Assembly (NCBI GenBank): GCA_964653765.1
Contig: CAZZGQ010000002.1
Span: forward strand, 1-56,667
Origin: an uncultured Elusimicrobia bacterium
GTDB lineage: Bacteria > Elusimicrobiota > Elusimicrobia > UBA1565 > UBA9628
Length of the DNA: 56,667 nt
Reading direction: 5' to 3'
In this document: positions 10,545-48,263 of the stretch, piece after piece
Numbering within the stretch: position 1 is the stretch's first letter
Layout of the letters: each line of letters starts with the position of its first letter
Position numbers and translations under genes: made by a program
The notes under the pieces: model-generated
Told to the model about the DNA's origin: nothing
The model's database searches: none
What the model saw: only the letters and a program-made list of their open reading frames with translations

Positions 10545-11356
10545 CGCCGGCGGCTTTTTCGCTCAAGGGCCGGGTGGCTGTTGTGACGGGCGGCGCGGGC
10601 TTTTTGGGGCAACAGCATGCCCGGGCTCTGCATGCTCATGGCGCGGAGGTGGCGCTCGTCGACATCGATGAGGCCGCCGCCAAGAAGGCGGCGCGCCGCG
10701 TTGGTCGTCGCGCGGCGGGCTTCGCAGTCGACGTGACCTCGCCCGATTCGGTGCGTGCTCTGGAGCGGCGCGTGCGCGCCGCTCTCGGCGAGGTTGATAT
10801 CCTCCTCAATAACGCGGCGATTGACCCGAAGATCAAGGCGGGAGGCGAGGGTGTCGAGTTCTCCCGACTCGAGAACTTTCCGCTGGAGCAGTGGAACCGC
10901 GAGATTGCTGTCGGCTTGACGGGAGCTCTTCTGTGCAGCCAGGTCTTCGGCACGCGCATGGCGCAGCGAGGACGCGGAGTCATCCTCAACATCGCCTCGG
11001 ACCTGTCCGTGATCGCGCCTGATCAGCGTCTCTATCGCAAGTCCGGTTTGCCGAAGCACCGCCAGCCCGTCAAGCCCGTCACGTATTCTGCGATCAAGGC
11101 GGGGTTGGTCGGCCTCACTCGATACTTGGCGACTTATTGGGCCGAGGACGGAGTTCGAGTCAATGCGCTGTCACCTGGAGGGATGCGCAAGGATCAGCCC
11201 GAGGAGTTCGTGGCGAGGCTGTCATCGCTCATCCCAGCCGGCCGCATGGCCGAGCTCGACGAATACGGAGGAGCGGTCGTCTTTCTCGTCAGCGACGCTT
11301 CGTCTTACATGACCGGCCAAAACGTCGTGATTGACGGCGGCCGAAGCATCTGGTAG
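10529..11356 (+). CDS. SDR family oxidoreductase
   Basis: TGGAGFLG, NNAA, YSAIK, VRVNALSPGG, TGQNVVIDGG. Confidence 0.93.
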   Translation: MPKRVTPAAFSLKGRVAVVTGGAGFLGQQHARALHAHGAEVALVDIDEAAAKKAARRVGRRAAGFAVDVTSPDSVRALERRVRAALGEVDILLNNAAIDPKIKAGGEGVEFSRLENFPLEQWNREIAVGLTGALLCSQVFGTRMAQRGRGVILNIASDLSVIAPDQRLYRKSGLPKHRQPVKPVTYSAIKAGLVGLTRYLATYWAEDGVRVNALSPGGMRKDQPEEFVARLSSLIPAGRMAELDEYGGAVVFLVSDASSYMTGQNVVIDGGRSIW

Positions 11357-11364
11357 GGGGTACT

Positions 11365-12096
11365 ATGGCTAAACGGGTCGTCGGTATCATTCAGGCGCGC
11401 ATGGGATCGTCGCGGCTCCCGGGGAAATCGATGGAGCTGCTGGCCGGCAAGCCGTTGGTTTGGCAATTCCTCGAGCGAGTGAAGCGATCCAAGCGGCTCG
11501 ACGAGATCGTGCTGGCCACGACCACCAAGGCGCAGGACGACGTTCTAGAGCAGTTGGCGCGCGGCTGCGAGGTCAGCGTCTTCCGAGGTAGCGAGAACGA
11601 TCTAGTCGACCGCTATTTCCAGGCGGCGAAACGGTTCAAAGCCGACACGGTGGTGCGCTTGTGCGCCGACAATCCGGTCGTCGAGTCCGAAGAAGTCGAC
11701 CGGATCATCGAGTACTTCCCTATCTCCGGCGTGGATTTCGCGGCTAATACTCATAACATCCTCGACAACCAGTATCCCGACGGCCTGGGCGCCGAGATCT
11801 TCAGCTTCGAGAGCTTGGAGGAAATCTGGCGGGAGTCCACCGACCCTCGGCGCAGGGAGCACCCGCACACGAACTTCTACGAGCAGCCCGAGAAGTACAC
11901 GATCGGCACCGTGCCTTGCCCCGCCGGCTTCCGCAGGCCCGAGCTCAAGCTCGACGTCAATCTGCCCGAGGAGCTGGCTTTCCTGCAGACGATCTACGAT
12001 TACTGCTATCCGCGCAACGAGCGCTTCCATATCACGGATATTATTCGGTGGCACGATACAGTCTATAAGAAGGAGCCGCTAAGAGCGTCGAAATAG
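11365..12096 (+). CDS. Acylneuraminate-type cytidylyltransferase, SpsF/PseF-like
   Basis: IIQARMGSSRLPGKS, FRGSENDLVDRY, VRLCADNP, REH, LDV..PE.L. Confidence 0.9.
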   Translation: MAKRVVGIIQARMGSSRLPGKSMELLAGKPLVWQFLERVKRSKRLDEIVLATTTKAQDDVLEQLARGCEVSVFRGSENDLVDRYFQAAKRFKADTVVRLCADNPVVESEEVDRIIEYFPISGVDFAANTHNILDNQYPDGLGAEIFSFESLEEIWRESTDPRRREHPHTNFYEQPEKYTIGTVPCPAGFRRPELKLDVNLPEELAFLQTIYDYCYPRNERFHITDIIRWHDTVYKKEPLRASK

Positions 12097-16597: not shown

Positions 16598-16640
16598 TTA
16601 TATGCCTTCTTTGGCGCAATCTAGAATCGACGAGTCAAGA

Positions 16641-17873
16641 ATGAACCCTACATCGGTGCACGACGTCGAGAAGCGAGCCGTTGGACCACGCTCTTCCAGT
16701 CACGGTTCCGTTGAAGCCAACGAATTAGACTGGGTACCAATCGCGCAGTGCTTATGGCGGTCTAGGCGCATGATTGTGCGAGGAACATTTCTAACGACCG
16801 TTGTGGTCGGCTTTCTAAGCTTCTTGTCTCCCAACGTTTACGAGAGCCGCGCCTTTCTGCGCTTTGGAAAATCGGGAATCCCTACCGTAACTTATAACTC
16901 GAAGGTGCCGGTCATATTTAACGTAGGGCATTTTTTGGACTATTTGCACCAGAAGGGCCATTTTTCAGGTGAACAAACGGCGGCCATTGAAAAGTCGTTT
17001 AAAAGCCCTGCTGGACCCGCGGCGCTGCAGAAGAGCGCGGAGATCGCTTACGACACGGAAAAGTCGAAACTTCCAGAAGCTCCGCTTCCTCCCAATGTCC
17101 TTGGCCTTTGGATCACCGTCGAAAGTCGCGCGCCGGAGCAAGCTCATGAGTTCGCCGCGTTTTTGGGCGACTATGTCAAGGATTGTCTCTTGTTTGACGA
17201 CCTTGATCAGTATATTCACTCGAATTTTCTGGCGGCGAGCAATTCCGTGAGGACGACGGAAAACTCGGTGGCCGACACCAATTTTAACATACGCCGTCTG
17301 GGTGCCAAATTGTCCGACCTTCAGCAGATCAAGAGCATATATCCGACGGCTCCAGTGGCGCTTCCCTGGCCCTCCACCGCGGGGTCGGAATACATTTCTC
17401 CAGCGGTTTTGGATATTGAGACGCAAGCAAAAATGGCCGAGTTTCGTAATCGCCGCCTTTCGTTGGCACGAGAAGACGAAATGGAGCGAATTCGTTTGGA
17501 GTTTTTTACCAAGGCCAACGAACTGCTGAAGAATGACAAGTTTTCCGTGGGGGGCGATCTGTTCCGGCTCTTGCAGCGCTTAAAGATGGATTTTTTTAAG
17601 GGCCAAGATCTTTCGAAGGATTCGGTTAAGGAAGTGTTCAATAACATTAGCATCGAGCTCGATGCGATGGGCGAACGCTATCTTTCCGACGTGAGTCCCG
17701 AGAATCGAACGATGGCAGGATATTATTCCGCGCCAGTCAAGGTGAGGCCGCATCGTTTGAAGATCATTTTTACATCATTCTTCTTGTCTTTGTCTTTTTT
17801 CATCATTCTGGCTTTAAGCAGGGAGTGGTGGGATCAGGTAGAGTCTCAATTGCAGGGACAGCGCGCGCCTTAA
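16641..17873 (+). CDS. Wzz-like polysaccharide co-polymerase / chain-length determinant (alternative start 16602)
   Basis: N-terminal TM followed by P.VYESRA, coiled-coil middle, APVKVRPHRLKII followed by C-terminal TM. Confidence 0.72.
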   Translation: MNPTSVHDVEKRAVGPRSSSHGSVEANELDWVPIAQCLWRSRRMIVRGTFLTTVVVGFLSFLSPNVYESRAFLRFGKSGIPTVTYNSKVPVIFNVGHFLDYLHQKGHFSGEQTAAIEKSFKSPAGPAALQKSAEIAYDTEKSKLPEAPLPPNVLGLWITVESRAPEQAHEFAAFLGDYVKDCLLFDDLDQYIHSNFLAASNSVRTTENSVADTNFNIRRLGAKLSDLQQIKSIYPTAPVALPWPSTAGSEYISPAVLDIETQAKMAEFRNRRLSLAREDEMERIRLEFFTKANELLKNDKFSVGGDLFRLLQRLKMDFFKGQDLSKDSVKEVFNNISIELDAMGERYLSDVSPENRTMAGYYSAPVKVRPHRLKIIFTSFFLSLSFFIILALSREWWDQVESQLQGQRAP

Positions 17874-18938
17874 GTGAAGCGGCCATTAAGAGTCGGCATT
17901 GCCGGGTATGGCGTCATTGGCCAGCGCCGAAGGCAAGTCATCGACGCGCATCCCGCCCTTAAGCTAGTCGCCATTGGCGATAAGACTTTTAAACGGCGAG
18001 AGCGGTTGGGAAACGGCCCTCGACAGTATCACGACTGCAGGGATCTTGTTGCTGCCGAACAGCTAGACGTTTTGTTCGTTTGTCTCCCAAATTATCTCGC
18101 AGCGCCGATGACCCTGGCCGGCCTGAAACGTGGTTTTCATGTGTTCTGCGAGAAGCCGCCAGGCCGCACGCTTGCTGAGATAGACGCCGTGTATGAATAC
18201 ACCAAGCGCAGGCCAGACCTGAAATTGAAGTATGGCTTCAATCATCGATATCATGACTCGGTCCGCGACGCGTTAGAGATTCTGGCCAAAGGAGAACTCG
18301 GCCGCGTTATTAGTCTGCGAGGCGTCTATGGCAAAAGCAAGATCATCCCTTTTGCCGATGCGTGGCGGGGAAAGCGGAAATATGCCGGAGGAGGCATCCT
18401 TCTTGACCAGGGCATTCATATGGTCGACCTCATCCGTCTGTTCGCGGGGGAATTCGTCGACGTTCACAGTTTCATTTCAAACGATTTCTGGCGGCATGAC
18501 GTGGAGGATAACGCCTATGCGTTGATGCGCACGAGAACGGGCGTGGTGGCCATGGTTCATTCTTCTGCGACGTCTTGGCGCCATCGTTTCCATCTTGACG
18601 TGACGCTGGAGCGCGGCGCCTTGATCCTTTCTGGCATTCTTTCGGGCTCACGTAGTTACGGCGCTGAGACACTTACGGTGGTCTATGCCGGTCAGGATGA
18701 TTCCGGCGACCCTAAAGAGCAAACGACTCGCTACAATCAGGATCATTCTTGGCGCGATGAGATCGATGAATTCGTCGAGGCCATTCTTCAGAATAAACCC
18801 GTTTCAAACGGCTCTTGCGAGGATGCCGTCAAGACGATGGAGCTCATTTACCGTATTTACTGCGCGGATTCCGTTTGGCGGAGCGCCTACAAGTTGCGGG
18901 GCCGGTTGTCGGGCGATCTTGCCGGAGCCGCGCGGTGA
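17874..18938 (+). CDS. Gfo/Idh/MocA family oxidoreductase
   Basis: GIAGYGVIG, HVFCEKP, GFNHRY, GGGILLDQGIH.VD. Confidence 0.92.
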   Translation: MKRPLRVGIAGYGVIGQRRRQVIDAHPALKLVAIGDKTFKRRERLGNGPRQYHDCRDLVAAEQLDVLFVCLPNYLAAPMTLAGLKRGFHVFCEKPPGRTLAEIDAVYEYTKRRPDLKLKYGFNHRYHDSVRDALEILAKGELGRVISLRGVYGKSKIIPFADAWRGKRKYAGGGILLDQGIHMVDLIRLFAGEFVDVHSFISNDFWRHDVEDNAYALMRTRTGVVAMVHSSATSWRHRFHLDVTLERGALILSGILSGSRSYGAETLTVVYAGQDDSGDPKEQTTRYNQDHSWRDEIDEFVEAILQNKPVSNGSCEDAVKTMELIYRIYCADSVWRSAYKLRGRLSGDLAGAAR

Positions 18939-19654
18939 AACGACCGCTCTCCGGTAAACGTGCGCTTGTCACCGGTGGCACTCGTGGCATTGGCGCGGCG
19001 ATCGTGCGGCGGCTGTGTCAAGATGGCGCGAGCGTCACGGTGACTGGCACCCGATTGAACGGCGAAAAACCGAAGGGCTGTGCCTATTTTGCCGTCGATT
19101 TCGCCGATCGCCCGGCGACGGAGGATTTCGCGCGACAAATGGCGCGGCGAGGTTTCGACATATTGATCAACAATGCCGGCATAAACAAGATTTCCCGATT
19201 TCAAGATATCGATCCTAGAGATTATGATCGGATCCAAGAAGTCAACGCGCGCGCTCCCTTTTTGCTTTGCACGGCTCTAGTTCCTGGAATGACGGCCCGT
19301 CGGTGGGGGCGCATCGTCAACCTGACCTCTATTTTTGGCGTCGTGAGCAAGGAATGTCGCGGAGCGTATTCCGCCAGCAAATTCGCTCTCGATGGGATGA
19401 CGGCAAGCCTCGCTGCGGAAGTGGTCCCTTACGGCGTTCTGGCAAACTGCGTCGCTCCTGGGTTTATCGATACCGAACTGACACGCTCAGTCCTTGGGAA
19501 AGCAGGCATGAAGGAAATGGCTCGGGCCATACCCGCCAAGCGCTTGGGCCGCCCGGAGGAGATCGCGGCGCTCGTGGCCTGGCTCTGCGGACCAGAGAAT
19601 ACTTACATTAGCGGCCAGAATCTCGTCATCGACGGTGGTTTTAGTCGTGTCTGA
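18935..19654 (+). CDS. SDR family oxidoreductase (FabG-like)
   Basis: GTGA overlap; TGGTRGIG, NNAG, YSASK, NCVAPGFIDT, SGQNLVIDGG. Confidence 0.92.
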   Translation: MKRPLSGKRALVTGGTRGIGAAIVRRLCQDGASVTVTGTRLNGEKPKGCAYFAVDFADRPATEDFARQMARRGFDILINNAGINKISRFQDIDPRDYDRIQEVNARAPFLLCTALVPGMTARRWGRIVNLTSIFGVVSKECRGAYSASKFALDGMTASLAAEVVPYGVLANCVAPGFIDTELTRSVLGKAGMKEMARAIPAKRLGRPEEIAALVAWLCGPENTYISGQNLVIDGGFSRV

Positions 19655-20735
19655 TCTCATCGTCCAGTCGCATCGGGGTCCGTATGCGGCGCATTTCAGC
19701 GGCGAGTCGCTTGACGATTTGTTCCGCGCGCCGCGGCCTAACGCCCATTATATCGTCGATCAAAATGTGGCGAAGCTCTATGCGAAGGCTCTTCGTCCAG
19801 TTCTTGAAACACGCTCAGTCCTTCGCCTGGAGGCCACGGAAAGAGCCAAGACGCTTGAGTGTTTCACCGGGTATGTTGAGCATCTTGTCGCATCGGGAAT
19901 ACGCCGCGGCGATACTTTGGTCGCTATAGGTGGCGGCGTTATTCAGGACATCGTTTGCTTTCTTGGAGCCACGTTGTTGCGCGGGATCGATTGGGAATTT
20001 TATCCAACCACCTTACTGGCTCAGGCCGACTCTTGCATCGGGTCGAAGAGCTCAATTAACGTCGGTTCTGCGAAGAATGTCCTTGGCACATACACGCCGC
20101 CAAAACGCATCGTCATTAACGTCGGTTTTCTTGACACTCTCTCCGAGTGGGATAGGCGGTCTGGAGTGGGCGAGATGCTCAAGGTCCATGCGATTGAGGG
20201 GCCGGCGGCTTTTAACCGTATCGCAAGCGAATACTCGAGGCTTTTTTTAGATAAGGGTGCCCTGATTCAATACTTGCGTGATTCCCTCGAAATAAAGCGC
20301 CGGATCGTTGAAGTTGATGAATTCGATCGTGGGCCTCGCAACGTCATGAATTACGGCCACACTTTTGGGCATGCCATCGAATCGGCGACTGATTACGCCA
20401 TTCCCCATGGAATTGCCGTGACGATCGGCATGGACATGGCGAATTTCGTCGCTTGGAAGCTTGGGTTGAGCACCGGAGAAATCTATTTCCGTATGCGACC
20501 GACGCTTGCGGCCAACTACAAAGGCTATGAATCAACGAAGGTGCCGTTTGATTCTTTCCTCGCGGCGATCGGGAAAGACAAAAAAAATACGAAAGATCAG
20601 CTCGGGCTGATTCTGCCAGATGGCGAGGGCCGTGTGGCGAAGCGTTTTTGTTCAAACAACGAGGAGTTCCGCGCCAGTTGCGAAGAATACCTCGCTCACC
20701 AGCGTGAGCCCTTGCCGCTGGCAAAGGGTCAATAG
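19647..20735 (+). CDS. AroB-related (3-dehydroquinate synthase-like) sugar-phosphate cyclase (alternative start 19635)
   Basis: E..KT, GGGVIQD, RG....PTTLLAQ.DS.IG.K...N, KN..G, GEMLK, RN.MNYGHTFGHAIE, HG.AV..GM, DKK. Confidence 0.88.
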   Translation: MSDLIVQSHRGPYAAHFSGESLDDLFRAPRPNAHYIVDQNVAKLYAKALRPVLETRSVLRLEATERAKTLECFTGYVEHLVASGIRRGDTLVAIGGGVIQDIVCFLGATLLRGIDWEFYPTTLLAQADSCIGSKSSINVGSAKNVLGTYTPPKRIVINVGFLDTLSEWDRRSGVGEMLKVHAIEGPAAFNRIASEYSRLFLDKGALIQYLRDSLEIKRRIVEVDEFDRGPRNVMNYGHTFGHAIESATDYAIPHGIAVTIGMDMANFVAWKLGLSTGEIYFRMRPTLAANYKGYESTKVPFDSFLAAIGKDKKNTKDQLGLILPDGEGRVAKRFCSNNEEFRASCEEYLAHQREPLPLAKGQ

Positions 20736-20800
20736 GTCTCCCGCGGCGAGAACAGCGTGATCGCGGCGGTCAAGAAGTCGTATCCCGGCTAGAGCGATCG

Positions 20801-22615
20801 ATGTTCCTTGCGACCACCGCATTGAGCGAGTTCTGGGATACGCGCTCCAGTATTCTGTTCCTTGGATCCTGGTGCTGCCTGCACAGCCGGATCCGGCAGC
20901 TCAAGACGATAGAGCACGCCGTCTTGCCTTATCCGTTAGACGATAAAGCCGTCTTCGATGAGGCTGTCGAGTTCTGCGACGTCTTTTATGACAGGTCCTT
21001 ATCCATTCTAGCGAGGACGCTGAACGGCCTGCACGGGACCTCTCTCAGCGAACAGTATTGGCGCATCCTTCTTGGCCCGTGGCTTACCCATTACATCCAC
21101 GCTCTCTATGACCGCTACCTTTGCGTCCAGGCCGCGCGAGAGAGCTATGGCGTCCTCGAAACCATCGGGCTGGACGAGTCGTCGTATTTCGTGCCTCGAG
21201 ATGCCGACGATCTGCTCAGGTCCATCCATACGGACTCCTATAACCTGCAGCTTCTCACCGCGACGTGCGAGTTTATGGGTGTCCGAATCAACTCGAGAAA
21301 AGCCCTAGATGTGCGGTCCGAAACCATCGTGCTTTCTCATTGGCGCGCGCGGCTCAAGCTTCGAGCGAGAAGAGTGTTTGCGGGATGCCTCGCGCGCCTG
21401 CTTCCTCAGTCCGTTTTCCTTCGTGACGGCCAAATCTGGTATTTTTCCTCTTACCTTCCGCTTAGCGCTCGGTTCCGCCTCCTGCTGCAGACTCGCGGTA
21501 GGGCGGTGTTCGTTCCGTATCACCGTAATGGCCCGAAGTTCGGCGCGCCGAAGATGGACCGCGATCTGCGCGCAGGGCTGGCTCGCGCATTCGGCGAAGG
21601 CGAATTCGAGCGCCTCTTCGCCTCAACGCTCGCCGCGAATTTCCCATGGCTGTACCTCGAGGGCTATGCTCGTTATCTGGCGCAGTTGAAGCCGATGTTG
21701 AGCCTCTCGCCGCGGGCGCTCGTTGCCTCCACCAATACCGTGCCCTTCCAATTCATCGCGGCTCAGCTCAAAGAGAAGGCCGGGTCCAAGCTCATCAGCG
21801 TCCAACATGGCGGCTCCTTCGGAACGGTCAAGCATAGTCCGACGGAGAAGCACGATCAGATAGTCGCGGATGAATATTGGAGCTGGGGCTGGTCAGACGG
21901 TTTGGGCGGACGCGCCAGACCGGTTCCCGGCTTCTTGCTCGGTTCTAGTCGACGACGGGGTGCCAGACGCCGCATGACGGGTCCTATTCTCTATAGTGGC
22001 AATGATATGCCGCGATACGCCTATCGTCTCTGGAGTAATCCGATCGGACCGCAATGGGAAGAGTTCATCCAATGGCAGCACCGCTGGCTCAGGGCGCTTG
22101 GAGCCGAGGCGCGTTCGGAGCTCTTTATTAGACTCTATCCCCACGACCATTACCTTTGGGAGCAAAAGCAACGGCTGCTAGAGTCATTCCCTGATTTGAG
22201 GCATGATGACGGTATAGTGCCATTCGAAGAAGCACTTGACCGCTGCAAGCTGTTCGTAGCTGACAACAACCACACCACGTTATTGCAGGCTCTGTCGGCG
22301 GACAAGCCGACGGTTTTGTTTTGGGAGCCGCGCTTCAATGGGCTTCGCCCGTCTGCCGAGCCCTACTTCGCCCGATTGCGAGAAACAGGCGTATTGCACT
22401 ATTCTCCCGAAGATGCCGCACGCAAGGTCAATGAGGTCCGCTCTCAACCGATGGACTGGTGGCGGCAGCCCGATGTGAGGCGAGCTGTAGCTTCGTTCAG
22501 GAGGCAGTTTGCCCATACCGAAGCCGATACCACAGCGGCCTGGGGCGACTCCTTTCTTCGGCTGCTCCGCAACTCTGTAAACCCAGCCGATCCGTCCTTG
22601 CTTTCTCGTCGATAG
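20801..22615 (+). CDS. Putative glycan transferase, resembles LIC12162 family (GT-B-like C-terminus)
   Basis: MFLATTAL.E.W...ILFLG.WC N-terminus, W.ILLGPWL, QHGG, WGW, RLYP, N.TT.LQAL....PT. Confidence 0.72.
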   Translation: MFLATTALSEFWDTRSSILFLGSWCCLHSRIRQLKTIEHAVLPYPLDDKAVFDEAVEFCDVFYDRSLSILARTLNGLHGTSLSEQYWRILLGPWLTHYIHALYDRYLCVQAARESYGVLETIGLDESSYFVPRDADDLLRSIHTDSYNLQLLTATCEFMGVRINSRKALDVRSETIVLSHWRARLKLRARRVFAGCLARLLPQSVFLRDGQIWYFSSYLPLSARFRLLLQTRGRAVFVPYHRNGPKFGAPKMDRDLRAGLARAFGEGEFERLFASTLAANFPWLYLEGYARYLAQLKPMLSLSPRALVASTNTVPFQFIAAQLKEKAGSKLISVQHGGSFGTVKHSPTEKHDQIVADEYWSWGWSDGLGGRARPVPGFLLGSSRRRGARRRMTGPILYSGNDMPRYAYRLWSNPIGPQWEEFIQWQHRWLRALGAEARSELFIRLYPHDHYLWEQKQRLLESFPDLRHDDGIVPFEEALDRCKLFVADNNHTTLLQALSADKPTVLFWEPRFNGLRPSAEPYFARLRETGVLHYSPEDAARKVNEVRSQPMDWWRQPDVRRAVASFRRQFAHTEADTTAAWGDSFLRLLRNSVNPADPSLLSRR

Positions 22616-22688: not shown

Positions 22689-24551
22689 ATGACCAGCCTC
22701 TCAACGAGGGCGGTGTGTTTCCCAAAATTGAGCCTTGCGGCGCTTGTGCTTGCAAGGTTCAGGCTGCGAAGCGGGCTAGAGGTGCACTTCGAGGATTACC
22801 CGCTCTACGCGAAGGCTCTTTTGCGCTGGTTCCGCGTGCCCGAGCGGTGGATTTTGGCTACCTATAGCGCCGTCGCACAAGGATCTGTCCAGCGCCTTCC
22901 AAGAGGAGATGCCCTGCCTGACCAAGCTCGTTTGGTCCTGCAAGCGATGCAGCTGGCCGACGATCTAAGCGTTGGGATCGAGCCGTTGATCACTGATAGC
23001 CAATGGGGCGCCTTCGGCCGGGAATTCTTGGGCGCTGAGCCTGCCGCCGCCGCCACCATCAAGCGGTTTTCCTGGGATTGGGCTTGGCCTTTCGCAAAGA
23101 CCATCGTCATCGCACGCGCCATTGTATCGGCCGACCGTCCACTCGTTGCGATTTGGAGCCCCTCCATTCCGGAAAACTGGCGGCAAGCGTGCGACTCCGT
23201 GATCGAGCGCTCAGGCGTTGAGATTGTGTCGTGGCCCATGGGGGCGGCGGCTATTTGGCGTTTGTTTACCGGCTTGGCTTGGGCCGCACGTGTATTGGGT
23301 TTGACTATGGCGACGGTGATTCGACATGGCATCAGACGAGGCGGGGCCCGCCAATCAGCCCTCATGGGAATCGAGCTCGTTGATCCACGGCGAATGGGAG
23401 GAACCCCGGCCGATCTTGATTATTGGATTGATGGACGCAAGGTGAAGCGGGAAGACGTGTTGTTTTACATGCACGGAGCGCAGAGGAATTTTTTGAAGCG
23501 AATGGGCGTTGACTGCGACGAGATTTTGCCGCGGCTGCGAGGTCAAGGATATCGCGTCTTGGAGCTCTATCGTCTTCCCTTGTCCTTTGAGTCGATTCGC
23601 GAGATCTTGGGAGCGTTGAGAAAGCTGCCAATACTTTCCGGGGGAACTGGAGGTTTTGGCTCCGTCGTTTATGAGGCGTGGCGGGCCTTTTTGACTTACC
23701 TGCCGCTTTTTGACCATAGCACTCCTCTTAACATGGTTCACACGCCTTTCCCAAGTGGGTTTGCCGGACCCCGTCTTGATAGTGGCGTTATTACGGGTTT
23801 GTGCCGAAGCCGAGGAAGCCGCAGCGTCGGCTATCAAAACCGTTTCGTCTACGATACGTTTGAATTCGATTTTGACTGCTACGATCTCTTCTTGGCTTGG
23901 GGAGCAGGTTGGTGGGATTCTTGGAGGCCGTTCTTGTGCCGCGTCCGCGATGTCTTTGAAGTTGGATGCTCCAATCTCGCGACGCTAGGCGCTTCCGATC
24001 TTAAGGATCAAAGAACCGTCGTGGTTTTTGCCCAAGAGCTCAATGGGAACCATTATTCCGCGTCGTACAATTACAAGTTGCTGCGCGCCTGTGGAGAGCT
24101 GGCCCGCCGATATCCTCGATGCAAGTTTGTCGTCAAGATGAAGGATTTGCAGGACATTGATGCCATTCTCAGTGATGCCGATTTTCGCCGGTATTGCGAG
24201 ACGATCTCGAATTTTTCCTTTGCTCGACTGTCGCGTCACGAGTGCGCGGGGTTGCTGCGGCAAGCCGATATTGTGATCGCCGCGGCCTACACAACGCCAG
24301 GTGGCGACGCGCTCTTAGCAGGCAAGCCCGTCATTTTCTACAGCGAGCTTGGCGGAGGGTGCAAAGCGCTAACGTCGATCTCCGGCTTGGTGGCGGAGAC
24401 GCTGAGCGATCTTGAAGTCTACTTTGAGAACGCGCTTGCTTCGATCGATCGGGCGGGGAAGTGGCCGCTTGAAACCCTGCGCAGACTGGATCCGTACCGA
24501 GATGGGGCTGCGCGTGACCGGATTATAGAACGGATTTTACAGGAAGCTTAA
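22689..24551 (+). CDS. Putative glycan transferase, GT-B-like C-terminus (resembles PFTS-motif polysaccharide biosynthesis proteins)
   Basis: GYQ, D.FLAWG, VVKMK, ADIVI..AYTTPG.DALLAGKPVIFY, DPYRDG.A..RI (typical GT-B terminal helix). Confidence 0.6.
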   Translation: MTSLSTRAVCFPKLSLAALVLARFRLRSGLEVHFEDYPLYAKALLRWFRVPERWILATYSAVAQGSVQRLPRGDALPDQARLVLQAMQLADDLSVGIEPLITDSQWGAFGREFLGAEPAAAATIKRFSWDWAWPFAKTIVIARAIVSADRPLVAIWSPSIPENWRQACDSVIERSGVEIVSWPMGAAAIWRLFTGLAWAARVLGLTMATVIRHGIRRGGARQSALMGIELVDPRRMGGTPADLDYWIDGRKVKREDVLFYMHGAQRNFLKRMGVDCDEILPRLRGQGYRVLELYRLPLSFESIREILGALRKLPILSGGTGGFGSVVYEAWRAFLTYLPLFDHSTPLNMVHTPFPSGFAGPRLDSGVITGLCRSRGSRSVGYQNRFVYDTFEFDFDCYDLFLAWGAGWWDSWRPFLCRVRDVFEVGCSNLATLGASDLKDQRTVVVFAQELNGNHYSASYNYKLLRACGELARRYPRCKFVVKMKDLQDIDAILSDADFRRYCETISNFSFARLSRHECAGLLRQADIVIAAAYTTPGGDALLAGKPVIFYSELGGGCKALTSISGLVAETLSDLEVYFENALASIDRAGKWPLETLRRLDPYRDGAARDRIIERILQEA

Positions 24552-24557
24552 GAATCG

Positions 24558-25382
24558 ATGCTATCCGTTGACGCGTTGGCGCAAAAGAATATCGAGCATC
24601 ATTCCCGGCTCAGCGCCGAGCACGAGTGGGTCAAGGGATTTGTATCCGCCGAGGCGCTAAGGCGGGCCGTTCCAACTTCCGGGACGAAGACGCTCGAGGA
24701 ATTTGAATCCGGCTATTTTGGTCCCGAGGTGGGCCCCGTACGCCGCTATCTCGAGGCGCAGATGCATCGATATATTAGCCCTGTGGATGAGTTCTTGGAC
24801 ATGGGTTGCGGCGGGGTTTGGTGGAAAGAATCTTATTGGCCGATCCCCAAACGCGTGACAGGCGTCGAGATTAATCCCTTCGCGCTGTTGAGCTTGCGAG
24901 ACACTTATTGGGACCATCGGAGATATCGTCTCATTTATGCTCCCTATGGTTTAACCGAGCTGCCCGATCAGTCGTTTGATCTGGCGCTTTCGTCGAGCGT
25001 GCTCGGATACGTTCTGCCTTCCATCGCGCAGCTTCATATCGCAGAGCTGGCCCGCCTGACGCGTCGAGGGGGATACGCCGTCTTTAGTCGCGTGAAGGCC
25101 GCCAATATTTGGACGCATGGCAGCGGGACCCGCTTGCGAGAAATCTCTCCGGGCGTATTCGATTACGCCTATTCACAACGAGATCTGAGGCGCGAGATCA
25201 TGAGCCACGGATTTGTGATCGAGGAATCGCGCAGCGTTGGCCTGCGGCTTCCGTTGCCGTGGCGAGCTATTCAAACGCTTTATCGTCAAGGGTGGGCGGG
25301 CTTTATGGACGCGGCCGCGAATAGGCTATTTCCGATTTTCCCATTGCACCATCTCATCGTCGCGCGAAAGAGGGGATCATGA
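24558..25382 (+). CDS. Class I SAM-dependent methyltransferase
   Basis: LDMGCGG, GVEIN, LPDQSFDL.LS..VL.Y. Confidence 0.82.
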   Translation: MLSVDALAQKNIEHHSRLSAEHEWVKGFVSAEALRRAVPTSGTKTLEEFESGYFGPEVGPVRRYLEAQMHRYISPVDEFLDMGCGGVWWKESYWPIPKRVTGVEINPFALLSLRDTYWDHRRYRLIYAPYGLTELPDQSFDLALSSSVLGYVLPSIAQLHIAELARLTRRGGYAVFSRVKAANIWTHGSGTRLREISPGVFDYAYSQRDLRREIMSHGFVIEESRSVGLRLPLPWRAIQTLYRQGWAGFMDAAANRLFPIFPLHHLIVARKRGS

Positions 25383-26512
25383 CCATTCGTCCTAGGCGGG
25401 CTCTTTTAAATCCTGAATTGATCCGACCCAGCGCGTTGAGCTCCCAACCAAGAGATCCTAAGCTTCTTTGGCTCGATAAGAACGAGAACTTGGACCCTGA
25501 GCTCCTCTCTGTTTCCCGAAGGATTCTTCCCGAAATCTTGCCGCTTGCCCTGTCGACGTATCCGGAGGCAGGAGAAACGTATCGAAAGTTGGGCCGTTGG
25601 CTGGAAGTCAGTCCTGAGTCATTATTGCTGACGCCAGGAAGCGATGGCGCGATTCGTCTCGCCTTTGAGGCGTTCGTCGACTCCGGCGACCCCGTTGTGC
25701 ACACTCATCCAACCTTCGCGATGTACCCCGTTTACGGCCAGATGTTTGGGGCTCAGGTTCATCGCGTCGAATACCAGCGAATAGGCAACGCCCCATTCAT
25801 TGATCCCGAGGCAGTTGTTCGGCAGCTCAAGGCGCATCGCCCGAAGCTCTTGTGCTTGCCGAACCCCGACAGCCCTACGGGCACTGTTCTTGCGCCAGAG
25901 GCCATTGAGAGCCTCTTAAAAGAATGCGAGGCCGTTGGCGCCGTGCTGCTGCTTGATGAAGCCTATCACCCGTTTCACGATTGGTCGGCGGCTCCCTGGA
26001 CCAGGGAATACAAGAATTTGATTGTCGCAAGGACATTCGCCAAGGCCTGGGGTGTGGCCGGCCTTCGGATTGGTTATGCCGTGGCTCATCCAGAAACCAT
26101 CGCTCTATTGCACAAAATGAGACCGATGTATGAGACAAGCACGTTCGCCGTCGAGTTCGTTTCTCGACTGCTTGATCATGCGCCTGACATGATGCGATCC
26201 GTGGCTCGGATCAACGAAGGAAAGCAGTATTTTGCTGGCGAGATGAAGGCCTTGGGATTGGAGGTTCTACCGACGGCCGGGAACTTCCTTCATGTCGACT
26301 TCGGCGGTCGAGGGCCGGTTATTCATGCGGCGCTTTCCGGCAAAGTCCTCTATCGGCCGACCTTCGATCATCCCAGCCTCGCGGGATACAGCCGCTTCAC
26401 GGTCGCGCCGCGGCCCATCATGGCTCGCGTCGTCGAGATGATCAAGGCCGCTTTAAACCCAGAAGTTTCCCAGCCTCAGGGAGCTCCTCAAGCGCGCGAG
26501 GTCCGAAGTTAA
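25379..26512 (+). CDS. HisC/CobD-family PLP-dependent aminotransferase (class I/II)
   Basis: LDKNEN, GSDGAI, NPDSPTG, DEAY, RTFAKAWGVAGLRIG, GNF. Confidence 0.9.
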   Translation: MTIRPRRALLNPELIRPSALSSQPRDPKLLWLDKNENLDPELLSVSRRILPEILPLALSTYPEAGETYRKLGRWLEVSPESLLLTPGSDGAIRLAFEAFVDSGDPVVHTHPTFAMYPVYGQMFGAQVHRVEYQRIGNAPFIDPEAVVRQLKAHRPKLLCLPNPDSPTGTVLAPEAIESLLKECEAVGAVLLLDEAYHPFHDWSAAPWTREYKNLIVARTFAKAWGVAGLRIGYAVAHPETIALLHKMRPMYETSTFAVEFVSRLLDHAPDMMRSVARINEGKQYFAGEMKALGLEVLPTAGNFLHVDFGGRGPVIHAALSGKVLYRPTFDHPSLAGYSRFTVAPRPIMARVVEMIKAALNPEVSQPQGAPQAREVRS

Positions 26513-26520
26513 GTCTTCGC

Positions 26521-27468
26521 ATGAAACATCAAGTTTTGATTTCGCCGTCGTCGTTTGGAGACTGCGGCTCTGATCCGCTTCGGATTCTCGAGGAGGCTGG
26601 CTTTGAGCTCAAGTTCAATCCTTACAGACGAAAACTGGTGCGCGCGGAAGTCGTGGAGCTTGCGCAAGGCTGCCACGGCCTGATCGCCGGCGTCGAGCCA
26701 TTAGACAAGGAAGTTCTGGAGAAGCTACCCGAGCTTCGCTGCATCAGCCGCTGCGGCGCGGGGCTTGATAACGTGGATCTGAATTGTGCGCGGGAGCTTG
26801 GGATTTCCGTTCTTAATACGCCGGAGGGGCCAACGCGAGCCGTGGCGGAGTTAGCCGTTGGACTGACGTTCGCCTTGGCCAGGGCCATCCCACGGCGCGA
26901 CCGCGCCATGCGCGCAGGACGTTGGGATAAAAGCCTCGGCATGTTAATCGAAGGCAAGACAGTGGGCGTGATGGGCCTTGGCCGTATTGGTCGGGCCGTG
27001 GCGCTTTTGTTTCAGTCCCTGGGTTGCCGCATTCTTGGAAACGATGTGCGTCCCGACGTGTCATGGGCGCGAGAACATCACGTTGAGCTCGTTTCTTTTG
27101 AAGAGCTTCTCAAACAAGCCGATATCGTTTGCCTCCATGTTTCCCTTGGCGCAAACAGCGTCGGTTTGATTGGACGACCCGAGCTCGCGCTTTTGAAAGA
27201 AGGCGCGTTATTGGTCAATTTGTCGAGGGGCGAGGCGGTTGACGAGGCCGCGCTGATTGAGGCGCTTGATTCCGGGCGCCTAGCTGGAGCTGCGCTTGAC
27301 GTCTTCGCTCAGGAGCCCTATCGAGGACCTTTGCTACGCTACGACAACGTCGTTTTGTCGCCGCACGTTGGGTCCTATGCGCGGGAAGCTCGACTGCGCA
27401 TGGAAGTGGATGCGGCCCGTAATCTCATCGCAGGCATGGACCAGCGGCTTGAACGCAAGCAAGGGTAA
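26521..27468 (+). CDS. D-2-hydroxyacid dehydrogenase (SerA-like, no ACT domain)
   Basis: ISRCGAGLDNVD, AVAE, GLGRIG, LH, N.SRG..VDE, LDVF..EP, SPH. Confidence 0.9.
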   Translation: MKHQVLISPSSFGDCGSDPLRILEEAGFELKFNPYRRKLVRAEVVELAQGCHGLIAGVEPLDKEVLEKLPELRCISRCGAGLDNVDLNCARELGISVLNTPEGPTRAVAELAVGLTFALARAIPRRDRAMRAGRWDKSLGMLIEGKTVGVMGLGRIGRAVALLFQSLGCRILGNDVRPDVSWAREHHVELVSFEELLKQADIVCLHVSLGANSVGLIGRPELALLKEGALLVNLSRGEAVDEAALIEALDSGRLAGAALDVFAQEPYRGPLLRYDNVVLSPHVGSYAREARLRMEVDAARNLIAGMDQRLERKQG

Positions 27469-29146
27469 GTCCCATGTGCGCGCCAACGCCGCCATTTACG
27501 GCGGAGCGGGCATCATCGTCCAAATCTTTCGTCTTGTCCAAGAAGTCCTTTTGCGCCGACTGCTCACGACGGAGATCATCGGAATCATCGGCTTGGGCGA
27601 TTTGGTCCAAAGTTTCGCCAAGAGCTTGGATCTGGGCGTCGTTGTGGCCGCGGGACGAGATTTGCCGCTGCTTCGCGGAGCGGGACGCCTCGATGAGGAA
27701 GCGATCGCTCGGAGAACGGCTCTATGGGGCTATGTAGCGCAGGCCGTTATATTCGCTATCCCAGTCGTTGTTTACGCTCTCGTTGCCGTCACCGATCCCA
27801 ACATTCGCTGGGCCTTGTGTGCGGCCTCCCTCGTTCAGGTTTTGACCGCCGCCTGCGAGGCGCGGCAGCTGGTCCTTCAGTCCGTCCAGAATTTCGCGAG
27901 CTTAAGCCGCGTCAACCTCTCCTTCGCCTTGATCTATGCCGCTTGCGTTGTGAGCGGAGCGGAATTGTTTGGGCTGCGAGGGGTCCTTGTTGGGGGCGTG
28001 GCGGCCTGGATTGTTCAGACGTTTCTCCTGCGCCATTACATCGCCGGCTTAGTTCTTCAAGAGGGGCGTCTCGATTTCAGAGTATTAAAGAGTCTCATCA
28101 GCTTTGGCCTTCCCTTGAAGCTTTGTGATTATCCGACCGCGCTTGCATTTCTCGTTGACTCGATGATTGTTGGAAAGCTCTTCGGCCTTGAAGGATTGGC
28201 GATTTACTCGACGGCGCGCGCGTTCTTCAACCAAGCCCTCGAGCTTCCCACGCGGTTTGGAAGCGTCGTGCTGATGAGGCTGTATCATGACGACGCAGCC
28301 GAGGGAAGGGCAGTCTCGGCCGCTCAATTGGCTCGATTCCTTAAGGCGCAATATTTTCTCATCCTTCCGGTTTTGGTTTGCGGCTTTGCCGTTGGCCTTA
28401 GGTTCCTCGCCTCTTGTTTCCTGCCTCGTTACATGCCCACGGTTGCGGTGGCTGAAGTTCTTATTCTTGAGGCTTATTTTGTTCCGCAGATCAGCTTGAT
28501 GCGTAATTATTGGATCATCGACAAGAATCTGCGCCTAATCGCCGTCTCGGGAAGCTTGTGGCTCATCTCTCGCGTCGTTTTGCTGTATTGGCTGGCTGTC
28601 GGCCTGAAGCTTGGGCTTATCGGCGCCGCTTGGGCATGTGTCGCCAGCGCCATTGTCTATTACGCATTCCTTTTGATCGGGATCGGGCACCCGCTTTGGG
28701 GCGGTGCTGGCAGCACTCGGCTTGGCTTGTCGGCGATCATTTCGGCCGCCGTAGCGGCGATTGCTGTGCGACAATTGAATACTCCAATGCCAGCCGTTTT
28801 GACGGCAGCGATGCTTGTCGCCGTCCGTCAATTGACTGGAATGATGATGGTGATTTCTCCACTGATCCTTTTCGGCCTCCTTGTTGTCGTCGCCGAAGAC
28901 AATGACGTTGGTTCCGTTACTGTCTGTCTGCCGCGGCTGAGCTTGTGGGCTCTATTCTTTGCCAGGATCAAAAGGAGAAAACCACTGGACGTCTACTTCG
29001 AGGATTACACGCGCTATGCCAAGGCGCTCATGCGCTGGTTTGGCATCCCTGAATCTTGGTTGTTGATTTGCTACCAGCTTGTCGCTGGCCGCTCGGTTCG
29101 CCGATTGCCGCAACGAACCTTGGGGGTTCCATCCCTCTCGGCCTAA
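27449..29146 (+). CDS. wzx: Wzx flippase with an extra ~80-aa C-terminal extension (start TTG 27449 or GTG 27476)
   Basis: RRLL....G, DLG...A.GR.LP, LISFGLPL, D...VG.LFG..GLAIY, LGLIGAAWA; many TMs. Confidence 0.8.
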   Translation: MNASKGKSHVRANAAIYGGAGIIVQIFRLVQEVLLRRLLTTEIIGIIGLGDLVQSFAKSLDLGVVVAAGRDLPLLRGAGRLDEEAIARRTALWGYVAQAVIFAIPVVVYALVAVTDPNIRWALCAASLVQVLTAACEARQLVLQSVQNFASLSRVNLSFALIYAACVVSGAELFGLRGVLVGGVAAWIVQTFLLRHYIAGLVLQEGRLDFRVLKSLISFGLPLKLCDYPTALAFLVDSMIVGKLFGLEGLAIYSTARAFFNQALELPTRFGSVVLMRLYHDDAAEGRAVSAAQLARFLKAQYFLILPVLVCGFAVGLRFLASCFLPRYMPTVAVAEVLILEAYFVPQISLMRNYWIIDKNLRLIAVSGSLWLISRVVLLYWLAVGLKLGLIGAAWACVASAIVYYAFLLIGIGHPLWGGAGSTRLGLSAIISAAVAAIAVRQLNTPMPAVLTAAMLVAVRQLTGMMMVISPLILFGLLVVVAEDNDVGSVTVCLPRLSLWALFFARIKRRKPLDVYFEDYTRYAKALMRWFGIPESWLLICYQLVAGRSVRRLPQRTLGVPSLSA

Positions 29147-30561
29147 TCCTGCCAGTCCTTCCCCTTTTTGGGGCGGTTTACGTTTATTTCTTTGGGCTAA
29201 AAGCAAGTCCCATGCAGGCGCTCCTGGCCGCTCTTCTCTGTTTTTTGTTTTGGCCGAAGGTGGGCTTGCACCAGCCTCCTCTCCTAGAGGGGATGTCGGC
29301 CTATATTTTCATGTGGCCGATCACCACGAGCGCGCTCGCCTTAAGCGTCTGGCGACATGAAGGGAAGAGGCAGGCGTCGGTCGGCAAGGCGCTTGGACGA
29401 TGCCTTTTCATCGCCATAGCGGCCGTCACCGTCTCATTTACGGCCTCCTGGTTGGTCGACAAACAGGGTCTTGCTCCGTCCACGATCGAGCCGCGTTTGC
29501 GCGTTTATAATTTTCTCATCTTGCTGCAAGCAGGATGGTTTTCTTATTTGTTTTTGCGCAGCGTGCGCACCGCGCAGGATGCGCGCCGCGTATTAGAAAT
29601 CTTCGCCTTGGGCGGGGGCGTGATTGTCGCGGAGTCAATTGTATTCGCTTACCTGAAAATACCGTCGCCTGGCGGTTTGGCGTTCGATAAGACGGCAGGG
29701 CGTTTTCAGAGCTTCTTCTATTCCAGTTTCTCCACCGTGAATTTTTTTATGACCTTGGCGTTTTCGAGCATGATGTATATGTCCTTGACACGGCGTCGAG
29801 CGTGGCTGTTATTAACGGCGGCTTGCTTCTTGCCTGTGATGGCGACCTATGAGCGCGGACCGATTTGTGGGCTACTGTGCGTGGCTCTGGTGGCTTTCCT
29901 TGCGACGCGCCGGCGCAAACTGCGATGGTTGCTTTCGATCGCTGTTGTCGCCGCGGCGCTAGCCATCGCCTTTCCGCTATTCTCGGAAGGGTTGGGCCGC
30001 GTGATGGGGGGCTCGGTACGCAAGGATTATTTTTCCTCAGGCCAGGTTTCCGTGCGGCGCGCGATCTGGGCGCGTGGTCTGGATGTTGGAGTCGTAGCGT
30101 TTCCGTGGGGGGTCGGCCCTGGCCTGTTTTCGGAGCAGACGGACGCTGTAGCGATCTGGGTACCGCCGGAGCGGTTCGCCGGACCGGCGGATCGCCTGTT
30201 TTGGGAGACTTATAATAGCCTTGTTCATGGATGGTATCATTCCGATTTGCATAGCCTCTACATGACTTGGATTGTGGAAAATGGGCTTCTTGGGATCCTG
30301 ACTCTTGTCTTTGTGGCGTTTATTTTTGGAAGAAGCCTTCTGGCGCTCTTGCGTACTCCTATTCCCACCGGCGATGAACCGTGGCGAACCTATGCTTTAT
30401 GGGTTTGCTCTTGCGCCGCTTTCGCAGGCCTGGCCGTAGACTATGCTTTTGACGTCAATCCTTTTTTGTTTTTCATGCTGTTTCCCCTTTTGCACATCGG
30501 CAAGGTTTGCCAACGGACACTCAGGTACAATAGCGACGAGCAGGCCATGTCGATTTGTTAG
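29056..30561 (+). CDS. O-antigen polymerase/ligase family (Wzy/WaaL) membrane protein; start uncertain (29056-29212)
   Basis: About 12 TMs, TYERG, large loop with R..IW..GL..P.GVG.G.F, HSDLHSLY..W.VENG..G. Confidence 0.78.
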   Translation: MVVDLLPACRWPLGSPIAATNLGGSIPLGLILPVLPLFGAVYVYFFGLKASPMQALLAALLCFLFWPKVGLHQPPLLEGMSAYIFMWPITTSALALSVWRHEGKRQASVGKALGRCLFIAIAAVTVSFTASWLVDKQGLAPSTIEPRLRVYNFLILLQAGWFSYLFLRSVRTAQDARRVLEIFALGGGVIVAESIVFAYLKIPSPGGLAFDKTAGRFQSFFYSSFSTVNFFMTLAFSSMMYMSLTRRRAWLLLTAACFLPVMATYERGPICGLLCVALVAFLATRRRKLRWLLSIAVVAAALAIAFPLFSEGLGRVMGGSVRKDYFSSGQVSVRRAIWARGLDVGVVAFPWGVGPGLFSEQTDAVAIWVPPERFAGPADRLFWETYNSLVHGWYHSDLHSLYMTWIVENGLLGILTLVFVAFIFGRSLLALLRTPIPTGDEPWRTYALWVCSCAAFAGLAVDYAFDVNPFLFFMLFPLLHIGKVCQRTLRYNSDEQAMSIC

Positions 30562-48253: not shown

Positions 48254-48263
48254 GAGGCAGAGA

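Follow-up and report, generated by a model that had tools for sequence, protein, structure and literature searches.

The DNA analysed here (the window) is a whole contig of 56,667 nucleotides (C2; CAZZGQ010000002.1) from an assembly of an uncultured Elusimicrobia bacterium (4.04 Mb in 626 contigs, rated 87.7% complete). Four packed genes on its forward strand, found where the first-pass annotation of this DNA had placed them, encoded an NAD-dependent oxidoreductase of the Gfo/Idh/MocA family (Gfo), a short-chain dehydrogenase/reductase (SDR), a protein resembling 3-dehydroquinate synthase (DHQS; AroB) and a predicted transferase of the LIC12162 family (Table 1). The stop codon of an upstream gene for a Wzz-like protein abutted the Gfo start codon. 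The Gfo and SDR genes overlapped by 4 nt and the SDR and DHQS-like genes by 8 nt (start at 19647) or 20 nt (start at 19635), and a 65-nt spacer separated the DHQS-like gene from the LIC12162 gene. The true start of the SDR was most likely the GTG at 18935, which overlaps the Gfo stop codon as GTGA and yields the usual KRALVTGGTRGIG N-terminus, and the GTG at 19647 was the likely start of the DHQS-like gene. Judged from the sequence, the SDR gene is predicted to be translationally coupled with both of its neighbours. The top NCBIfam match of Gfo was IolG (105 bits, far under cut-off), and its nearest entries in the Protein Data Bank (PDB) were inositol 2-dehydrogenase, glucose-fructose oxidoreductase and aldose 1-dehydrogenases; it shared a median 56% identity with the Gfo proteins of related loci.

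These genes lay in a near-unidirectional surface-glycan island of 40 kb (~12000–52000). The GC content was 53–59% from ~12 to ~52 kb, against a background of 62–72% (68–72% across the first 6 kb of the window). The island encoded a WecA-like initiating transferase, a PglF-like dehydratase, the Wzz-like protein, glycosyltransferases of the GT2 and GT4 families, many methyltransferases and two Wzy_C proteins, and genes of the type described below as a cassette were duplicated in it as well. The GC contrast, the Wzy_C pair and the duplicated genes suggest that the island was acquired horizontally, and two polymer systems have possibly been merged into a single locus. A search of a plasmid collection gave no match for the window.

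The first-pass annotation had proposed a DHQS-superfamily member outside a shikimate context, coupled to Gfo and SDR genes within a glycan island bearing cytidine monophosphate (CMP) transferases. That description held: no shikimate gene was found in the window, and a NeuB-like synthase, a TIM barrel, three pyridoxal 5′-phosphate (PLP) enzymes and three CMP-transferase genes were all present. The further idea of a one-off new system did not survive, the DHQS-like protein being a member of the curated family TIGR04425, which was found in at least 589 species genomes. Instead, the window appeared to carry its own rearranged version of a surface-glycan cassette that is widespread and centres on the TIGR04425 enzyme.

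The DHQS-like enzyme and its family

The DHQS-like protein matched TIGR04425 over profile positions 1–346 of 348 (462.1 bits, E = 1e-138; cut-off 400) and stayed under the cut-off of the AroB model TIGR01357 (249.1 bits, or 248.8 when the whole genome was searched, against 305). NCBIfam describes TIGR04425, a functionally uncharacterised hypothetical equivalog that has been curated for years, as [quoted passage not shown]. Against PDB structures the protein scored 146 bits with AroB, 93 with DOIS, 88 with the EEVS ValA and 67 with DDGS. In a maximum-likelihood tree, 30 TIGR04425 members including the window protein formed one clade (100/100 support) beside AroB, with a stem branch of 2.95 and short branches inside.

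Eighteen TIGR04425 members were aligned with nine canonical AroBs from genomes having both. Common to the two groups were R116, D132, K138, N148, E180, K183, K221, R235, N239, H242, H246, H258 and K317, which we take to be the equivalents of R130, D146, K152, N162, E194, K197, K250, R264, N268, H271, H275, H287 and K356 in the DHQS of A. nidulans. Lys250 and Arg264 of the latter presumably bind the carboxylate, and the roles of the phosphate ligands are assumed in the same way. By this comparison, the TIGR04425 enzyme keeps every DHQS ligand for NAD, metal, phosphate and carboxylate. With its phosphate ligands and the Lys and Arg for the carboxylate retained, its substrate should resemble 3-deoxy-D-arabino-heptulosonate 7-phosphate (DAHP), a hept-2-ulosonate 7-phosphate, and not sedoheptulose 7-phosphate (S7P) or glucose 6-phosphate (G6P). 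Cyclases of the EEVS, DDGS, DOIS and EboD types replace the carboxylate-binding Arg and Lys of DHQS.

The motifs GGGVIQD, DSCIGSK, GEMLK, GHTFGH and PHGI, quoted in the first-pass annotation, were all present in the translation. The pocket differences from AroB that had been read from them were real, but they were not particular to the window gene and were invariant across the whole TIGR04425 family. These family-wide signatures were G to Q104, S to C134 and G to S137, plus C108, F122, S139, S140, P155 and D231; PHGI, which also stands in the TIGR04425 consensus, replaced the HGE of most AroB sequences. As signs of a changed substrate class the motifs failed, since the DAHP-binding residues were all retained.

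The top 120 database relatives of the DHQS-like protein were all 58–74% identical to it. Peptide patterns specific to TIGR04425 matched at least 589 species-representative genomes; among the matches listed were Elusimicrobiota, Desulfuromonadota, Alpha-, Beta-, Gamma- and Zetaproteobacteria, Acidobacteriota, Actinomycetota, Planctomycetota, Bdellovibrionota, Leptospirales, Bacteroidota and Patescibacteria. Cultured carriers included Magnetospirillum sp. LM-5, Paramagnetospirillum caucaseum SO-1, Hyphobacterium lacteum and Aquirufa echingensis. Within Actinomycetota, two scans of 401 genomes each gave only AroB cross-matches, apart from three genomes with real or near-cut-off members (G011, G012 and G304). 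The gene was patchy within a genus (8 of the 22 genomes of one Magnetospirillum genus), a distribution typical of surface-glycan genes. Its surroundings were O-antigen or capsule loci and, on one chromosome from the Geopsychrobacteraceae, a flagellin-glycosylation island with a Maf-like protein. A Geopsychrobacteraceae genome (G001; L009/L011) had three AroB-model matches at 243–254 bits, the score range of the family, besides two AroB-type matches above cut-off, and the copy examined stood in the flagellin-glycosylation island downstream of flgK, flagellin, csrA and fliW. No TIGR04425 member above cut-off was found in any of 14 model genomes, an absence that probably explains the lack of assays on the cassette.

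A separate canonical aroB was present above cut-off in nine of the ten other TIGR04425 carriers (the tenth had a frame-shifted aroB), but not in the window's own assembly. Neither aroA (a MurA cross-match only) nor aroC was found there; at 87.7% completeness, 12% of the genome is possibly missing from this assembly. The organism may lack the shikimate pathway, or the relevant contigs may be missing. Given that neither aroA nor aroC was found, the DHQS-like enzyme is not likely to be a sole aroB serving that pathway. On the reading favoured below, the cassette is unconnected with aromatic amino-acid synthesis.

Two further genes of the assembly touch on this chemistry. A single DAHP_synth_1-family gene (C9: 6501–7277, in a 301-aa frame) could be KdsA. 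The second and last DHQS-superfamily gene, on contig C161 (L130, 2310–4025, minus strand), was very divergent, with 270 bits to NF004852 (under cut-off) and 77 bits to AroB structures. An open reading frame (ORF) overlapping it upstream (3494–4819) matched the uncharacterised AF_1765 (PDB 3guw), which we take to be TatD-like. By sequence, the two resemble EboD and EboB from the cryptic ebo cluster and not a shikimate gene.

Partner genes and their arrangement in the window

The proteins of 80 related loci were clustered, and partner genes were counted by tblastn in 49 loci with at least 8 kb on each side. The SDR was found in 48 of the 49, almost always directly upstream of the DHQS-like gene, and a 2-hydroxyacid dehydrogenase resembling phosphoglycerate dehydrogenase (PGDH-like 2HADH) in 43, usually directly downstream. 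Gfo and a CMP-transferase (KdsB-like or PseF-like) each occurred in 42 loci and a divergent GmhA-like SIS isomerase in 32. An HpcH/HpaI pyruvate aldolase was found in 22 loci, a HisC-like aminotransferase in 12, a LIC13510-family protein in 10, a true NeuB in nine and a LIC12162-family protein in five. Some related loci had a 6-phosphogluconolactonase-family gene (153.6 bits, above cut-off); a thiamine diphosphate (ThDP) enzyme was found neither in the window nor in the 80 related loci.

HpcH and the HisC-like aminotransferase never occurred together. Loci of the HpcH type were accompanied by a KdsB-like gene and a 331-aa methyltransferase, and those of the aminotransferase type (variant 2) by a second Gfo, a KdsB-like gene, a 256-aa methyltransferase and often LIC13510; both variants used the same KdsB-like orthologue group. 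This mutual exclusion may be the best clue to the pathway. A CMP-transferase was present, but no HpcH or NeuB aldolase within 10 kb, in 15 of the 49 loci.

On these comparisons, the window is the aminotransferase variant, with its genes dispersed over the glycan island. It had the usual neighbours of a TIGR04425 gene, with the SDR just upstream together with Gfo, PGDH-like and KdsB-like genes, but its partners were spread over ~30 kb, where other loci hold them in one block, and its copy was without the GmhA-like isomerase. Neither a GmhA-like nor an HpcH gene was found in the window. The HisC-like aminotransferase was 66–69% identical to that of the variant-2 loci L035 and L049, and its best PDB matches were histidinol-phosphate aminotransferases. 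The first 2HADH gene, relocated ~6–6.8 kb downstream of the DHQS-like gene, encoded a protein with 45–50% identity to the cassette 2HADHs (best PDB match phosphoglycerate dehydrogenase, 223 bits). The orthologous second Gfo and KdsB-like genes stood 26–27 kb from the DHQS-like gene; in variant-2 loci this Gfo stands between the aminotransferase and the CMP-transferase. The KdsB-like protein encoded next to it was 64–67% identical to the cassette CMP-transferase of L080, L039, L032 and L049 and is, on that likeness, most likely the activating enzyme of the cassette product. The other KdsB-like gene and the second PGDH-like gene (from 40156 and 40889) were paralogous cassette-type genes, with ~44% and ~35% identity to cassette genes. 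Elsewhere, the last gene of variant-2 cassettes encodes a true TIGR04326 member, and the distant LIC13510-like protein of the window is a candidate transferase of this variant.

Table 1. Genes of the window discussed in the text. Positions are those of the whole window; L numbers denote related loci; PLP, pyridoxal 5′-phosphate; SAM, S-adenosylmethionine; TM, transmembrane.
Feature	Position	Strand	Matches and remarks
NeuB-like synthase, 291 aa, apparently without C-terminal SAF domain	7560–8435		248.5 bits (cut-off 399.65)
PLP enzyme, class IV (IlvE-like) aminotransferase	8653–9720		
Xylose-isomerase-like TIM barrel	9654–10544		
CMP-transferase family gene, divergent	11365–12096		in NeuB-like module
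Wzz-like chain-length-determinant protein, 423 aa, ~2 TM segments	16602–17873	+	weak PF02706 match; crude TM count
Gfo/Idh/MocA NAD-dependent oxidoreductase	17874–18938	+	PF01408, PF22725, PF02894; E down to 3.5e-24
FabG-like SDR	listed ORF 18815–19654; likely 18935–19654	+	PF13561, PF00106
DHQS-like enzyme	19635 or 19647 to 20735	+	PF01761, PF24621, TIGR04425
LIC12162-family transferase (predicted), 604 aa	20801–22615	+	TIGR04331, 427.8 bits, E = 7e-128
620-aa soluble protein, very rare family	22689–24551	+	no Pfam/NCBIfam match
SAM-dependent methyltransferase	24558–25382	+	PF08241
HisC-like class I/II PLP aminotransferase, orthologue of cassette “AT12”	25379–26512	+	hisC 202 bits, under cut-off
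PGDH-like D-2-hydroxyacid dehydrogenase (cassette 2HADH)	26521–27468	+	PGDH 228 bits, under cut-off
Membrane ORF, 616 aa	27296–29146		
Wzy_C protein	29056–30561		
PLP enzyme	34298–35395		weak DegT-like match
SAM methyltransferase, orthologue of cassette 331-aa methyltransferase	38217–39209	+	52% identity to L023, L036
DUF4432 protein	39206–40159		overlaps start of KdsB-like gene 40156
Second KdsB-like cytidylyltransferase	40156–40908	+	NF009905 298.7 bits, above cut-off 255
Second PGDH-like 2-hydroxyacid dehydrogenase	40889–41872	+	PGDH 232 bits
648-aa fusion, N-terminal GT2 domain and C-terminal zinc-type alcohol dehydrogenase	41876–43822		scyllo-inosose 3-dehydrogenase-like or threonine dehydrogenase-like
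Distant LIC13510-like (TIGR04326) surface-carbohydrate protein	43809–45641	+	68.7 bits, under cut-off 250
Second Gfo/Idh/MocA oxidoreductase	45611–46741	+	65–68% identity to L080, L048, L049, L025; NCBIfam matches
KdsB-like cytidylyltransferase	46738–47514	+	NF009905 222.9 bits, under cut-off 255
Wzy_C protein	48129–49601		

Product of the cassette

We put at roughly three in four the probability that the DHQS-like gene belongs to a non-shikimate cassette making a CMP-activated acid sugar. The presence of a KdsB/NeuA-type CMP-transferase in 42 of the 49 loci points to a CMP-activated acid as the product, and the conservation of the active site to an acid of seven carbons with a terminal phosphate before the DHQS-like step. 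To our knowledge, enzymes of the KdsB/NeuA family act only on the anomeric C2 hydroxyl of 2-ulosonic acids. The HpcH aldolase and KdsB-like gene of 22 loci suggest that a 2-keto-acid handle is made and used, a handle that ring closure would destroy. In the 15 loci without an HpcH or NeuB aldolase, the oxidoreductases must supply the keto-acid.

A complete route of this kind, with a DHQS-like step that closes no ring, is offered tentatively, at somewhat less than even odds; the absence of ring closure, taken by itself, is about as doubtful or slightly more so. The route would start with a DAHP-like hept-2-ulosonate 7-phosphate. In HpcH loci, the aldolase would form such a heptulosonate phosphate from pyruvate and a tetrose phosphate. 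In aldolase-free loci, the window's type, the GmhA-like isomerase would, by family precedent, supply an aldoheptose 7-phosphate, which would be oxidised at C1 by Gfo, a step modelled on glucose-fructose oxidoreductase and aldose 1-dehydrogenases. The PGDH-like 2HADH would then oxidise C2 of the resulting omega-phospho-aldonate, as SerA and PdxB do on theirs. The DHQS-like enzyme, with bound NAD+ and a metal, would transiently oxidise C5 and eliminate the C7 phosphate; the coupled SDR would reduce the ketone before any ring is formed, giving a 7-deoxy-heptulosonic acid. In the aminotransferase variant, the second Gfo and the HisC-like enzyme would install an amino group and methyltransferases would decorate the sugar. 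The KdsB-like enzyme at 46738–47514 would form the CMP-sugar, and GT-B-like proteins (the LIC12162 protein, perhaps also the 620-aa protein and the LIC13510-like protein) would attach it to a Wzy-dependent polymer.

The non-cyclising step was chosen because the handle for the KdsB-like enzyme must survive and a CMP-carbocycle would be a poor donor, and because the pairing of DHQS-like enzyme and SDR mirrors the dehydratase–reductase pairing of 6-deoxy-sugar pathways. By analogy with NDP-hexose 4,6-dehydratase and 4-ketoreductase, oxidation beside a leaving group, elimination and reduction by a partner would yield a terminal methyl group, but in the cassette the fold is that of DHQS and not SDR, phosphate and not water would leave, and the substrate would not be nucleotide-linked. 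The apparent translational coupling of the Gfo, SDR and DHQS-like genes also speaks for the route, and the 6-phosphogluconolactonase-family gene of some loci is consistent with C1 oxidation of a sugar phosphate. The pathways to CMP-3-deoxy-D-manno-octulosonate (CMP-Kdo; KdsD, KdsA, KdsC and KdsB) and of NeuB/NeuA likewise have an acidic keto-sugar, activation by the KdsB/NeuA family and a dedicated transferase. The cassette would differ from CMP-Kdo synthesis in taking its keto-acid from a class II pyruvate aldolase or from oxidation, and in losing its phosphate through a DHQS-like lyase and a reductase and not a phosphatase; neither KdsA nor KdsC was found in the window, which had KdsB-like genes only.

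Caryophyllose offers a chemical precedent for a bacterial need of the 3,7-dideoxy-heptulosonate skeleton. The HpcH-family aldolase MMAR_2331 is proposed to make the C7 alpha-keto acid that gives rise to its 1,3,4,5-tetrahydroxyhexyl side chain (PMC9306805; PMC5706390). The M. marinum pathway, with this aldolase and the ThDP enzyme MMAR_2332, shares with the proposed route a C7 polyhydroxy alpha-keto acid and the same skeleton, but the acid serves there as a carboligase donor and not as a CMP-sugar.

Several points weigh against the non-cyclising route. Every AroB residue is kept, and DHQS chemistry with aldol ring closure would be the default expectation; the enol-pyranose intermediate of DHQS reportedly cyclises spontaneously. 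The parts assigned here to Gfo, to the GmhA-like isomerase and to the 2HADH are guesses from family precedent, and the PDB neighbours of Gfo span aldose 1-dehydrogenases and inositol dehydrogenases alike. The route leaves unexplained why HpcH loci keep Gfo and 2HADH, and the mutual exclusion of HpcH and aminotransferase is not fully explained by any route drawn. The GmhA-like isomerase, present in 32 of the 49 loci, is missing from the window, and neither of the two GmhA-like genes found on the rest of the assembly is a clear orthologue. A literature search found no publication on the function of TIGR04425 or an assay of a member, and likewise nothing on the function of LIC12162/TIGR04331 or on DHQS in O-antigen clusters or M. 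marinum lipooligosaccharide.

The first-pass annotation had favoured a true cyclase, which would carry out the full DHQS reaction on a DAHP-like acid to give a dehydroquinate-like carbocycle. The SDR would reduce the ketone, Gfo and the aminotransferase would lead to an aminocyclitol carboxylic acid, and this acid, CMP-esterified at its tertiary carbinol, would enter the glycan as a carba-ulosonic acid. The complete AroB active site, including residues that act after phosphate loss, is what such an enzyme would have; TIGR04425 is also the closest relative of AroB in the tree, the curators' name assumes cyclisation, and the best matches of Gfo are inositol dehydrogenases. The tertiary carbinol and carboxylate of a quinate-like ring might mimic the anomeric centre of Kdo. 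Carbocyclic sugars of lipopolysaccharide (LPS) do exist, caryose and bradyrhizose, for which we know of no genes. Against this, a CMP-carbocycle ester lacks the ring oxygen that stabilises glycosyl transfer and would donate poorly or not at all, the aldolase of 22 of the 49 loci would build a keto-acid that cyclisation destroys before the KdsB-like step, and a PGDH-like dehydrogenase cannot act on a tertiary alcohol. A preprint on SugarBase describes small CMP-linked species, unreactive with 1,2-diamino-4,5-methylenedioxybenzene (DMB), in Magnetospirillum gryphiswaldense; this is a lead only, as the gene was found in 8 of the 22 genomes of a Magnetospirillum genus and M. gryphiswaldense was not shown to be among them. 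The main text of the bradyrhizose gene-cluster paper names no DHQS or cyclase gene. Taken together, we consider ring closure unlikely, though a serious contender: if real, its product would be a multi-phylum carba-ulosonic or aminocyclitol-carboxylic acid, CMP-esterified by the KdsB-like enzyme. A link to bradyrhizose itself was dropped, the main text of that paper having neither the word dehydroquinate nor the word cyclase.

Removal of the terminal phosphate from a longer chain was judged improbable. The substrate would be a C8–C10 ulosonate phosphate, or else a heptose phosphate later extended by a NeuB-like or HpcH aldolase, and the product an omega-deoxy higher-carbon ulosonic acid related to nonulosonic acids. 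Such trimming would suit the NeuB-like synthase of the window and the true NeuB or HpcH found within 10 kb in 29 of the 49 loci, and the GmhA-like isomerase does suggest heptose phosphates. The SugarBase preprint also reports unassigned CMP-linked C10 alpha-keto acids in a Magnetospirillum, and the cassette occurs in Magnetospirillum species. But the carboxylate- and phosphate-binding residues are arranged as in AroB, which fits a seven-carbon acid and not a long-tail phosphate; 15 loci with a CMP-transferase are without an HpcH or NeuB aldolase; and the NeuB-like gene of the window lies in a separate module 10 kb off with its own CMP-transferase.

An ordinary DHQS paralogue, converting DAHP into 3-dehydroquinate as the sole DHQS or for a quinate- or shikimate-derived glycan substituent, was more improbable still. 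The window enzyme does resemble AroB (EC 4.2.3.4) in fold, in identity (~30–38%) and in keeping all ligands, the DAHP-binding residues among them, and no canonical aroB was found in the assembly. It differs in scoring under the AroB cut-off, in its long separate branch, in at least 12 family-specific substitutions beside the NAD and substrate loops and in its non-shikimate context: the gene always lay within glycan or flagellin-glycosylation loci, nine of the ten other carriers have a canonical aroB of their own, and with aroA and aroC undetected, the assembly (87.7% complete) offers it no shikimate pathway to work for.

A February 2026 review counts DHQS, DOIS, EEVS, EVS, DDGS and EboD/DEIS in the superfamily, apart from the unrelated myo-inositol-phosphate synthase. 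The members other than DHQS act as is expected of the window enzyme, oxidising a sugar phosphate with NAD+ and then eliminating the phosphate, but their substrates are neutral sugar phosphates, their carboxylate ligands are lost and they have no link to CMP-transferases or glycan loci. A cyclitol synthase of the EEVS, DDGS, DOIS or EboD type, acting on S7P or a hexose phosphate to make a neutral cyclitol unrelated to the CMP-transferases, could draw on the shared superfamily and on the GmhA-like, S7P-related isomerase of many loci, but was the hardest to credit, given the invariant DAHP carboxylate-binding Arg and Lys of TIGR04425, PDB scores to DOIS, EEVS and DDGS far under that to AroB, and the naming of no glycan-linked member in the review.

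New biochemistry would follow from either answer. If the non-cyclising route is true, the DHQS fold has been repurposed as a phosphate-eliminating “deoxygenase” giving a seven-carbon, sialic-acid-like CMP-sugar. If ring closure is true, the LIC12162- and LIC13510-type proteins would be pseudo-glycosyltransferases into LPS, capsule or flagellin glycans, and no earlier genetic route would have led to carbocyclic residues of bacterial surface glycans. The cassette would produce a surface antigen, which in some loci is a flagellin glycan; its identity would improve the annotation of O-antigen and capsule loci and help to interpret unassigned CMP-sugars in mass spectrometry. The window adds one more rearranged copy, and what matters is the family and not this one locus.

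Transferase candidates and other genes of the island

The LIC12162 protein matched TIGR04331 over positions 1–581 of 585 (cut-off 225), and its database relatives carry PF27859. It had been called an orphan, which it is not, belonging to TIGR04331/PF27859 with a loose link to the cassette (five of the 49 loci). The suggestion of a GT-B-like transferase fared better: an AlphaFold model of high confidence (pLDDT 91, pTM 0.92) predicted a distant GT-B-like fold. Its Foldseek matches in the PDB were BshA, MurG and the teichoic-acid polymerase TagF, all distant (E = 1.5e-5, ~11% identity), and the TM-scores against GT-B structures were 0.34 by query and 0.51 by target. The closest relative (59% identity) came from a NeuB-type glycan locus with no DHQS gene in the portion examined. 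The LIC12162 protein thus appears to be a general protein of ulosonic-acid loci and not a dedicated cassette partner.

For the 620-aa protein encoded next, a search of 5.8 billion proteins gave four homologues (55–63% identity), one of which shares a 35.7-kb contig with the closest relative of the LIC12162 protein. Its model was of low confidence (pLDDT 61), with weak matches to GT-B C-domains in the C-terminal half, and an hhalign match to the LIC12162 family was collinear but non-significant; it is possibly a second GT-B-like transferase. Residues 9–72 (22713–22904) were 58% identical to residues 543–606 (28922–29113) of the 616-aa membrane ORF, a stretch situated at the overlap of this ORF with the start of the first Wzy_C gene. 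A duplicated gene start may have left this likeness behind, or the ORF may be mis-joined; no DNA repeat was detected between 22.6 and 30.7 kb.

A separate five-gene module (7560–12096) lay in the higher-GC flank, ~10 kb upstream of the cassette, and encoded the NeuB-like synthase, an aminotransferase, the TIM barrel, an SDR and a CMP-transferase. A single 639-aa protein combined NeuB, SAF and TIM-barrel parts on the related contig L096. The module is probably another unusual ulosonic-acid pathway.

Towards the far end of the island, the DUF4432 protein, which presumably has a galactose-mutarotase-like fold, may be an anomerase or epimerase acting on a CMP-sugar precursor. The 648-aa fusion of glycosyltransferase and alcohol dehydrogenase stood between the second PGDH-like gene and the LIC13510-like gene.

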